Part shown: piece by piece, positions 14,609 through 17,486 of the stretch | Position numbering within the stretch: the stretch's first letter is position 1 | How the letters are laid out: each line of letters starts with the position of its first letter | Source of the DNA: Escherichia coli | GTDB lineage: Bacteria > Pseudomonadota > Gammaproteobacteria > Enterobacterales > Enterobacteriaceae | DNA: 64,000 nucleotides | Assembly: GCF_003334765.1 (NCBI RefSeq) | Contig: NZ_QOWT01000002.1 | Strand: one strand, 5' to 3' | Notes under the pieces: model-generated | The model's input: only the letters and a program-made list of their open reading frames with translations | The model's database searches: none | What the model was told of the DNA's origin: nothing | Translations under genes and position numbers: made by a program

Positions 14609-16237
14609 ATGAAAACTCGCGACTCGCAATCAAGTGACGTGATTATCATTGGCGGCGGCGCAACGGGAGCCGGGATTGCCCGCGACTGTGCCCTGCGCGG
14701 GCTGCGCGTGATTTTGGTTGAGCGCCACGACATCGCAACCGGTGCCACCGGGCGTAACCACGGCCTGCTGCACAGCGGTGCGCGCTATGCGGTAACCGAT
14801 GCGGAATCGGCCCGCGAATGCATTAGTGAAAACCAGATCCTGAAACGCATTGCACGTCACTGCGTTGAACCAACCAACGGCCTGTTTATCACCCTGCCGG
14901 AAGATAACCTCTCCTTCCAGGCCACTTTTATTCGCGCCTGCGAAGAAGCAGGGATCAGCGCAGAAGCTATAGACCCGCAGCAAGCGCGCATTATCGAACC
15001 TGCCGTTAACCCGGCACTGATTGGCGCGGTGAAAGTTCCGGATGGCACCGTTGATCCATTTCGTCTGACCGCAGCAAACATGCTGGATGCCAAAGAACAC
15101 GGTGCCGTTATCCTTACCGCTCATGAAGTCACGGGGCTGATTCGTGAAGGCGCGACGGTGTGCGGTGTTCGTGTACGTAACCATCTCACCGGCGAAACTC
15201 AGGCCCTTCATGCACCTGTCGTGGTTAATGCCGCTGGGATCTGGGGGCAACACATTGCCGAATATGCCGATCTGCGCATTCGCATGTTCCCGGCGAAAGG
15301 ATCGCTGCTGATCATGGATCACCGCATTAACCAGCATGTGATCAACCGCTGCCGTAAACCTTCCGACGCCGATATTCTGGTGCCTGGCGATACCATTTCG
15401 CTGATTGGTACCACCTCTTTACGTATTGATTACAACGAGATTGACGATAATCGAGTGACGGCAGAAGAGGTTGATATTCTGCTGCGTGAAGGGGAAAAAC
15501 TGGCCCCCGTGATGGCGAAAACGCGCATTTTGCGGGCCTATTCTGGCGTGCGCCCGCTGGTTGCCAGCGATGACGACCCGAGCGGACGTAACGTCAGCCG
15601 TGGCATCGTGCTGCTCGACCATGCTGAACGCGATGGTCTGGACGGATTTATCACCATCACCGGTGGCAAACTGATGACCTATCGGCTGATGGCTGAATGG
15701 GCTACCGACGCGGTATGCCGCAAACTGGGCAACACGCGCCCCTGTACGACTGCCGATCTGGCACTGCCTGGTTCACAAGAACCCGCTGAAGTTACCTTGC
15801 GTAAAGTCATCTCCCTGCCTGCCCCGCTGCGCGGTTCTGCGGTTTATCGTCATGGCGATCGCACGCCTGCCTGGCTGAGCGAAGGCCGTCTGCACCGTAG
15901 CCTGGTATGTGAGTGCGAAGCGGTAACTGCGGGTGAAGTGCAGTACGCGGTAGAAAATTTAAACGTTAATAGCCTGCTGGATTTACGCCGTCGTACCCGT
16001 GTGGGGATGGGCACCTGCCAGGGCGAACTCTGCGCCTGCCGCGCTGCCGGACTGCTGCAACGTTTTAACGTCACGACGTCCGCGCAATCTATCGAGCAAC
16101 TTTCCACCTTCCTTAACGAACGCTGGAAAGGCGTGCAACCCATCGCCTGGGGAGATGCACTGCGCGAAAGCGAATTTACCCGCTGGGTTTATCAGGGATT
16201 GTGTGGTCTGGAGAAGGAGCAGAAAGATGCGCTTTGA
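14609..16237 (+). CDS. glpA: anaerobic sn-glycerol-3-phosphate dehydrogenase subunit A (542 aa)
   Basis: Track ORF 14609..16237; FAD-binding GGGATGAG motif near N-terminus; matches GlpA. Confidence 0.96.
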
Positions 16238-17486
16238 TACTGTCATTATGGGCGGCGGCCTCGCCGGATTACTCTGTGGCCTGCAACTGCAAAAACACGG
16301 CCTGCGCTGTGCCATTGTCACTCGTGGTCAAAGCGCACTGCATTTCTCATCCGGATCGCTGGATTTGCTGAGCCATCTGCCAGATGGTCAACCGGTGACA
16401 GACATTCACAGTGGACTGGAATCTTTGCGTCAGCAGGCACCAGCCCATCCTTACTCCCTTCTCGAGCCACAACGCGTGCTCGATCTCGCTTGCCAGGCGC
16501 AGGCATTAATCGCTGAAAGCGGTGCGCAATTGCAGGGCAGCGTAGAACTTGCTCACCAGCGGGTTACGCCGCTCGGCACTCTGCGCTCTACCTGGCTAAG
16601 TTCGCCAGAAGTCCCCGTCTGGCCGCTGCCCGCGAAGAAAATATGTGTAGTGGGAATTAGCGGCCTGATGGATTTTCAGGCGCACCTTGCGGCAGCTTCG
16701 TTGCGTGAACTCGGCCTTGCCGTTGAAACCGCAGAAATAGAGCTGCCGGAACTGGATGTGCTGCGCAATAACGCCACCGAATTTCGCGCGGTGAATATCG
16801 CCCGTTTCCTTGATAATGAAGAAAACTGGCCGCTGTTACTTGATGCGCTTATTCCTGTCGCCAATACCTGCGAAATGATCCTGATGCCCGCCTGCTTCGG
16901 TCTGGCCGATGACAAACTGTGGCGTTGGTTGAATGAAAAACTACCTTGTTCACTGATGCTTTTGCCAACGCTGCCGCCTTCCGTGCTGGGCATTCGTCTG
17001 CAAAACCAGTTACAGCGCCAGTTTGTGCGCCAGGGTGGCGTGTGGATGCCGGGCGATGAAGTGAAAAAAGTGACCTGTAAAAATGGCGTAGTGAACGAAA
17101 TCTGGACCCGCAATCACGCCGATATTCCGCTACGTCCACGTTTCGCGGTTCTCGCCAGCGGCAGTTTCTTTAGTGGCGGACTGGTAGCGGAACGTAACGG
17201 CATTCGAGAGCCGATTCTCGGCCTTGATGTGCTACAAACCGCCACGCGGGGTGAATGGTATAAGGGAGATTTTTTTGCGCCGCAACCGTGGCAGCAGTTC
17301 GGTGTAACCACTGATGAGACGCTACGCCCGTCACAGGCAGGGCAAACCATTGAAAACCTGTTTGCCATCGGTTCGGTGCTGGGCGGATTTGATCCCATCG
17401 CCCAGGGATGCGGCGGCGGTGTTTGTGCCGTCAGTGCTTTACATGCCGCTCAACAGATTGCCCAACGCGCAGGAGGCCAACAATGA
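16227..17486 (+). CDS. glpB: anaerobic sn-glycerol-3-phosphate dehydrogenase subunit B (419 aa)
   Basis: [40 protein letters not shown]...; ATG at 16227 overlaps the glpA 3' end by 11 nt. The upstream part of track ORF 15999..17486 is an out-of-frame extension over glpA. Confidence 0.95.

Follow-up and report, generated by a model that had tools for sequence, protein, structure and literature searches.

In Escherichia coli, the genes glpA, glpB and glpC encode the three subunits of the anaerobic, menaquinone-linked glycerol-3-phosphate dehydrogenase, and each downstream gene begins before the preceding one has ended. The locus raises the question of whether its two overlaps couple translation of the subunits, and whether such coupling would yield them in equal numbers. 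In the literature, GlpAB is the catalytic unit and GlpC the anchor of one membrane-associated enzyme; our search found no solved structure of GlpB. We examined the operon within a stretch of 64,000 nucleotides of E. coli DNA (the window), whose coordinates are used throughout. RefSeq already annotates both junctions and a published genome-wide survey already lists them. The overlaps as such are unsurprising, since -4 is the commonest spacing of co-directional E. coli genes and -11 belongs to ‘phase 1’, the more frequent class among longer overlaps.

Gene boundaries and start codons

Open reading frames, together with the RefSeq annotation of an identical locus, show that the genes follow one another as A-B-C on a single strand and diverge from glpT-glpQ (Table 1). 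GlpA, GlpB and GlpC all score above the curated NCBIfam equivalog cutoffs, and these scores and the RefSeq annotation show that the sequence-only reading had named the genes correctly. It had also placed the glpB ATG (16227) 11 nt inside the 3' end of glpA, which the open reading frames and RefSeq confirm, and had described a glpC ATG overlapping the glpB stop, which is right to the base and agrees with RefSeq. The glpA stop lies 8 nt downstream of the glpB start and is built from glpB codons Phe3 (TTT) and Asp4 (GAT), and the glpB stop overlaps the glpC start. On an E. coli chromosome that is 100% identical (L001), the PGAP annotation gives glpA at 3210-4838, glpB at 4828-6087 and glpC at 6084-7274; these boundaries equal the window coordinates minus 11399, so that the limits of all three genes are identical. 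Several complete E. coli chromosomes match the 4.4-kb glpABC stretch at 100% identity, 5419 of the 5426 complete E. coli genomes contain the operon, and the 80-nt stretches around both junctions keep at least 95% identity in every E. coli genome with the operon.

Table 1 Coordinates of the glpABC genes, their overlaps and the associated signals in the window
Feature	Position	Strand	Details
glpA CDS	14609..16237	+	Open reading frame and translation, 542 aa; RefSeq; NCBIfam NF008313, 1107 bits (cutoff 425)
glpB CDS	16227..17486	+	419 aa; NCBIfam NF003718, 907 bits (cutoff 370); residues 1-419 aligned to profile 1-419
glpC CDS	17483..18673	+	396 aa; NCBIfam TIGR03379, 765 bits (cutoff 280)
glpA/glpB overlap, 11 nt, ATGCGCTTTGA	16227..16237	+	glpB ATG 16227-16229; glpA stop TGA 16235-16237
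glpB/glpC overlap, ATGA, spacing -4	17483..17486	+	glpC ATG 17483-17485; glpB stop TGA 17484-17486
Shine-Dalgarno-like GAGGG of glpA	14598..14602	+	6 nt 5' of the glpA ATG; predicted 16S duplex -6.3 kcal/mol
Shine-Dalgarno AAGGAG of glpB	16214..16219	+	Inside glpA Lys-Glu codons, 7 nt before the glpB ATG; predicted duplex -8.0 kcal/mol
Shine-Dalgarno AGGAGG of glpC	17471..17476	+	Inside glpB Ala-Gly-Gly codons, 6 nt before the glpC ATG; predicted duplex -10.3 kcal/mol
Intrinsic terminator after glpC	18684..18720	+	Hairpin with 12-bp stem, then UUUUU; fold -21.9 kcal/mol

For comparison we scanned one genome per species and recovered 80 Enterobacteriaceae loci with GlpB 58-97% identical, making 81 with the E. 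coli locus; the contig scan yielded Enterobacteriaceae only. Because both overlaps hinge on the start codons, alternative starts were examined in this set. Were the annotated starts wrong, the overlaps would be annotation artefacts, with glpC starting at 17408 and glpB at 16248 or at an upstream GTG, and longer in-frame open reading frames do exist (17408-18673, 421 aa; 15999-17486, 495 aa). The alternative starts, however, are not conserved. The ATG at 17408 does not persist among the 81 loci, and in 21 of them the glpC frame is closed one codon before the annotated start. In 65 of 81 loci GlpB has Ile, Val or Thr (mostly Ile or Val) at residue 8, the position of the ATG at 16248, whereas M1, F3 and D4 do not vary across an alignment of 12 sequences reaching down to 62% identity. 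The curated family profiles match the annotated proteins end to end, and perfect 6-nt Shine-Dalgarno sequences stand 6-7 nt ahead of the annotated glpB and glpC ATGs. We give the misannotation reading almost no credence.

A programmed frameshift or GlpA-GlpB fusion was also considered, since in E. coli the 88 codons before the glpB start contain no stop in its frame. It was dropped because in related loci this open stretch can be as short as 0 or as long as 116 codons, so that it is no conserved extension of GlpB either; the single fused GlpA-GlpB protein in the database (P0045) is a singleton with shifted frames.

Transcription unit and RNA structure

Any coupling model requires that the genes share one transcription unit. 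We found no promoter-like site on the + strand inside glpABC, and terminator-like matches inside the operon were weak only, occurring at the rate of shuffled sequence; the junctions themselves leave no room for a promoter or terminator between the genes. A terminator hairpin starts eleven bases past the glpC stop; its fold has z = -3.86, and all 200 shuffles fold less well. With no internal promoter and a strong terminator after glpC, the three genes thus lie on a single transcription unit that extends from the glpA promoter region to that terminator.

One of the two accepted models of coupling invokes RNA unfolding. Applied to this operon, it would have the glpB and glpC starts locked in structure that only ribosomes translating the upstream gene could open, and in the minimum-free-energy fold a downstream CCGCCUG does pair with some of the glpC Shine-Dalgarno bases. 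The predicted folding of the junctions nevertheless argues against it. Shuffled sequence tends to fold more stably than the 121-nt segments around the junctions (z = +0.99 for glpA/glpB, with 160 of 200 shuffles more stable, and +1.89 for glpB/glpC, with 198 of 200), and the start regions are paired no more than their surroundings (pairing probability 0.45-0.64 versus 0.55-0.62 in the surrounding mRNA, in contexts of 140-320 nt). No inhibitory hairpin is predicted at either junction. We rejected the inhibitory-hairpin model because no stable structure is predicted to sequester either downstream ribosome-binding site, and we regard coupling by unfolding as very improbable here.

The same sites could also load ribosomes directly. 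In predicted duplexes with the 3' end of 16S rRNA, the glpB and glpC Shine-Dalgarno sequences reach -8.0 and -10.3 kcal/mol, compared with -6.3 kcal/mol for glpA, the weakest of the three. As both internal sequences are strong and predicted to be unsequestered, independent initiation of glpB and glpC is possible.

Conservation of the junctions within and beyond Enterobacteriaceae

The spacing of both junctions is strongly conserved in the family. Across the 81 loci, glpA/glpB is always at -11, and glpB/glpC is at -4 in 75 (including that of locus L075, assigned ATGA by eye), at -1 in five and at +3 in one, so that 80 of 81 have an overlap of 4 or 1 nt. These values agree with the supplement of Huber et al. 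2023 (PMC10666635), in which E. coli b2241 glpA-b2242 glpB is listed at -11 and glpB-glpC at -4, both with complex ‘yes’. That survey of 1695 genomes gives the COG pair GlpA>GlpB a value of -10.2 (listed range -11 to -3.8, 149 genomes) and GlpB>GlpC a value of -3.2 (range -4 to +4.8, 138 genomes). It is the conservation of spacing, and not the mere occurrence of overlaps, that exceeds chance.

The sole addition of our comparative work to these published figures is detail at the level of codons. The AGGA core of the glpB Shine-Dalgarno sequence is present in all 81 loci. Within this Shine-Dalgarno sequence, the GlpA Lys codon is AAG in 55 of 55 cases, against a mean of 0.43 over seven conserved Lys columns (itself included), and the next Glu codon is GAG at a frequency of 0.91, against 0.33 over 26 Glu columns (itself included). 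A control Glu codon just upstream of the Shine-Dalgarno sequence has a free third base (47 A, 34 G). At the glpC Shine-Dalgarno sequence, 58 of the 63 loci in which GlpB has Gly encode it by GGA, compared with a mean of 0.13 and a maximum of 0.41 at the 29 other conserved GlpB Gly columns. The Phe3 codon of GlpB is TTT in 81 of 81 loci (mean about 0.57 at conserved Phe columns), and it is the sole column with 100% TTT among the 25 conserved Phe columns of the three proteins. Synonymous sites are frozen at both internal Shine-Dalgarno sequences and at the glpA stop, a codon pattern that shows selection on these signals. For Phe3 the object of selection is the stop and not coupling as such: losing the glpA TGA would extend GlpA by 93 codons, so the invariant TTT may simply reflect the need for a glpA stop.

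Beyond the family, we took a small sample of ten representative GlpB cluster proteins of 50% to 28% identity, with gene boundaries taken from automatic gene calls. The A/B spacing was -11 twice (at 50% and 38% identity), -4 four times, and +12, +36 and +181 once each, with one junction (L084) uninterpretable; the B/C spacing was -4 three times, -8 once, and +14, +47 and +87, and an adjacent glpC was not identified in the remaining three loci. The GlpB N-terminus M-x-F/Y-D was kept nearly throughout this sample, and all loci that use TTT for its Phe offer an out-of-frame TGA at +9 to +11. In GlpB, the first Rossmann-fold strand begins with M-x-F-D. The junction architecture is thus conserved within the family and partially beyond it. 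Since distant homologues carry real spacers of up to +181, the overlap is not needed for the enzyme; across the sequences compared, it is a frequent, lineage-stable solution.

A stronger reading treats the -11 junction as an evolutionarily locked state. The TTT-GAY codons of M-x-F-D would supply the out-of-frame glpA TGA, which would explain why -11 turns up not just in Enterobacteriaceae but also in bacterial homologues with as little as 38% identity and in a haloarchaeal paralogue. Such a junction could set the reinitiation frequency below that of ATGA and could aid co-translational assembly of GlpA with GlpB; if so, the C-terminal iron-sulfur domain of GlpA would be placed beside the emerging GlpB N-terminus. 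We consider this reading improbable.

Plausible translational coupling and comparison with known systems

Coupling is most efficient at spacings of -4 to +3, and overlaps lose efficiency faster than spacers. Huber et al. 2023 took the range from -8 to +10 as predictive of termination-reinitiation, counted 707 of 2987 unidirectional E. coli gene pairs between -8 and +6, and found that in E. coli short overlaps join genes for subunits of heteromeric complexes with 4.5-fold enrichment (PMC10666635). By this measure glpB/glpC at -4 lies inside the efficient range and glpA/glpB at -11 just outside it. Reporter measurements in E. coli give a reinitiation coefficient of 0.022 at -4 and of about 0.007 near -10 and from 0 to +25, falling by 0.0004 per nt beyond -10 (PMC4538824); reinitiation at about -11 is thus roughly one third of that at -4, and both amount to about 0.7-2% of upstream translation in reporter units. 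The -11 junction is the weaker reinitiation candidate of the two. The mechanism of coupling is disputed between 30S scanning, 70S scanning and RNA unfolding, and because depletion of ribosome recycling factor leaves coupling unchanged genome-wide, termination-reinitiation itself is among the disputed points.

Expression data bear on coordination and not on ratios. At pH 5.8, ribosome footprints on glpA, glpB and glpC rise by log2 8.05, 7.89 and 7.16 and the mRNAs by 6.26, 5.77 and 5.67, with glpB listed among genes of increased translation efficiency (acid-stress ribosome-profiling paper). These values show coordinated expression and, being fold changes, are silent on absolute GlpA:GlpB:GlpC ratios; a literature search on GlpABC stoichiometry returned nothing useful. 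The sequence-only reading had taken the overlaps as consistent with stoichiometric co-translation of the three subunits. Co-translation is favoured by the single transcription unit and the conserved junction spacing. Weighing against its being stoichiometric are a -11 junction outside the -8 to +10 range, strong unsequestered Shine-Dalgarno sites that allow independent initiation, and distant operons with spacers of +12 to +181. The overlaps fit coordinated synthesis without demonstrating 1:1:1, and ‘stoichiometric’ goes beyond the evidence.

The main rival is that the overlaps are neutral by-products of compaction, with the genes initiated independently and the spacing fixed by the M-x-F-D of GlpB and the need for a glpA stop. 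Much of the evidence above suits this view: glpA has a weaker Shine-Dalgarno sequence than either downstream gene, the junctions fold less stably than shuffles, loss of the TGA would lengthen GlpA, distant operons carry spacers at A/B (+12, +36, +181) and at B/C (+14, +47, +87), and reporter reinitiation coefficients are small (PMC4538824). M-x-F-D is, moreover, conserved far beyond the taxa that bear the overlap. Speaking against it are a typical spacing that, instead of drifting, holds near -10 in 149 genomes for A/B and near -3 in 138 for B/C, an A/B spacing that is usually the canonical -4 where it differs, and the enrichment of complex subunits among short overlaps. Judging from footprint size, a ribosome terminating on the upstream gene would also cover both start sites, making full independence impossible. 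We consider the neutral account possible but unlikely.

Our preferred reading is that these are normal E. coli glpABC cistron junctions that probably secure coordinated subunit production through reinitiation together with fresh ribosome loading. From the arrangement of the sites, termination-reinitiation coupling is plausible, more so at the ATGA than at -11, and mixed with independent initiation. When a ribosome ends glpB at UGA, its P site would be 2 nt away from the glpC AUG and the Shine-Dalgarno sequence would be suitably spaced for initiation, so that it could restart directly. A ribosome ending glpA would have the glpB AUG 5 nt behind its P-site codon and would have to slip back a few nucleotides, a less efficient step in which it would probably be tethered by the Shine-Dalgarno sequence. 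Fresh 30S subunits would also load at both strong sites, which are predicted to be unstructured, and supply the remainder. The net result would be a compact operon with coordinated, not necessarily equimolar, output of GlpA, GlpB and GlpC from one mRNA.

So read, the glpABC junctions are an ordinary compact operon design that probably helps three subunits to be made together. They offer a clean, conserved textbook case of ribosome-binding sites and a stop codon written into the coding sequence of a neighbouring gene, and the occurrence of -11 and -4 in one operon makes them a natural test pair for the effect of overlap length on translational coupling. Their significance beyond the locus is small, and no larger question is opened or settled by them.

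We found no coupling assay on glpABC in the literature surveyed. The operon of E. coli K-12 (b2241-b2243) was reportedly sequenced by Cole et al. in 1988 (J Bacteriol 170:2448). Gene order, lengths (542, 419 and 396 aa) and junctions (-11 and -4) match the K-12 entries tabulated by Huber et al. 2023, with no difference of substance. Haloferax volcanii, compared by spacing alone, shares the gene order and has an A/B spacing that is equal or close to that of E. coli (glpA2-glpB2 -11, glpA1-glpB1 -14), as well as a glpB1-glpC1 spacing of -4; it differs in glpB2-glpC2 at +62 (PMC10666635) and in haloarchaeal translation initiation. The synthetic bicistronic reporters of Tian & Salis 2015 (PMC4538824) share the stop/start geometry of the glp junctions (d = -11 and d = -4), but carry weak downstream ribosome-binding sites or designed hairpins; at the glp junctions the Shine-Dalgarno sequences are strong and no hairpin is predicted. 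The termination-reinitiation pairs with -4 (ATGA) and -1 overlaps tested by Huber et al. (2019, 2023), native to E. coli and Haloferax volcanii, are the systems that glpB/glpC resembles in its canonical ATGA, in a glpC Shine-Dalgarno sequence that lies within the upstream gene, and in products that are subunits of one complex; glpA/glpB, at -11, departs from them by falling outside their -8 to +10 range.

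Sequence 3' of glpC and RNA families in the window

Directly 3' of glpC lies a strong intrinsic terminator, whose hairpin folds at -21.9 kcal/mol (z = -3.86); a simple terminator scan made no call there. Farther on is an ORF (Table) that is listed as rpnE, an inactive recombination-promoting nuclease-like protein, in the E. coli K-12 gene-pair table of Huber et al. 2023 (PMC10666635); the reference annotation places pseudogene fragments on both sides of it. Two Rfam families were matched elsewhere, naRNA4/CssrE at 76.4 bits (gathering score 59.5) and the nuoG RNA motif at 50.3 bits (gathering score 33); the nuoG match shows that the window extends as far as the nuo operon.

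Features annotated outside the glpABC genes
Feature	Coordinates	Strand	Description
Intrinsic terminator, strong	18684-18720	+	directly 3' of glpC; 12-bp stem, then UUUUU
299-aa ORF	18866-19765	+	3' of glpC; ISNCY family transposase in RefSeq
naRNA4 / CssrE (nucleoid-associated noncoding RNA 4)	9169-9239	-	Rfam match
nuoG RNA cis-regulatory motif	62135-62177	-	Rfam match

Induction of glpABC at pH 5.8

Under aerobic conditions at pH 5.8, ribosome footprints of glpA, glpB and glpC are among the strongest inductions reported, with glpB translation efficiency up by log2 2.08 (PMC10746267, Tables 1 and S4); the authors offer no explanation for induction of the glp regulon.

Variation in GlpB and in the glpA/glpB junction

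GlpB comprises 405 aa, versus 419, in loci of Enterobacter, Leclercia and Lelliottia (for example, L032-L040 among the relatives compared): 14 residues are deleted internally, near residues 49-66, and neither gene end accounts for the shorter protein. Two database proteins labelled E. coli GlpB, each the single member of its cluster, are probably assembly errors or strain-specific lesions: P0001 (496 aa) carries an internal 77-aa tandem duplication of a segment ending in TLPPS, and in P0045 (581 aa) the GlpA C-terminus is fused to GlpB, with the junction read through in shifted frames.

At the relative's locus L084 (contig logan:SRR29082275_702772), which encodes a GlpB of 47% identity, ~288 nt of AT-rich non-coding DNA (1411-1700) separates glpB from an apparently truncated glpA. 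This gap may reflect an insertion or a glpA in decay, and contrasts with E. coli-like operons, in which glpA and glpB overlap.
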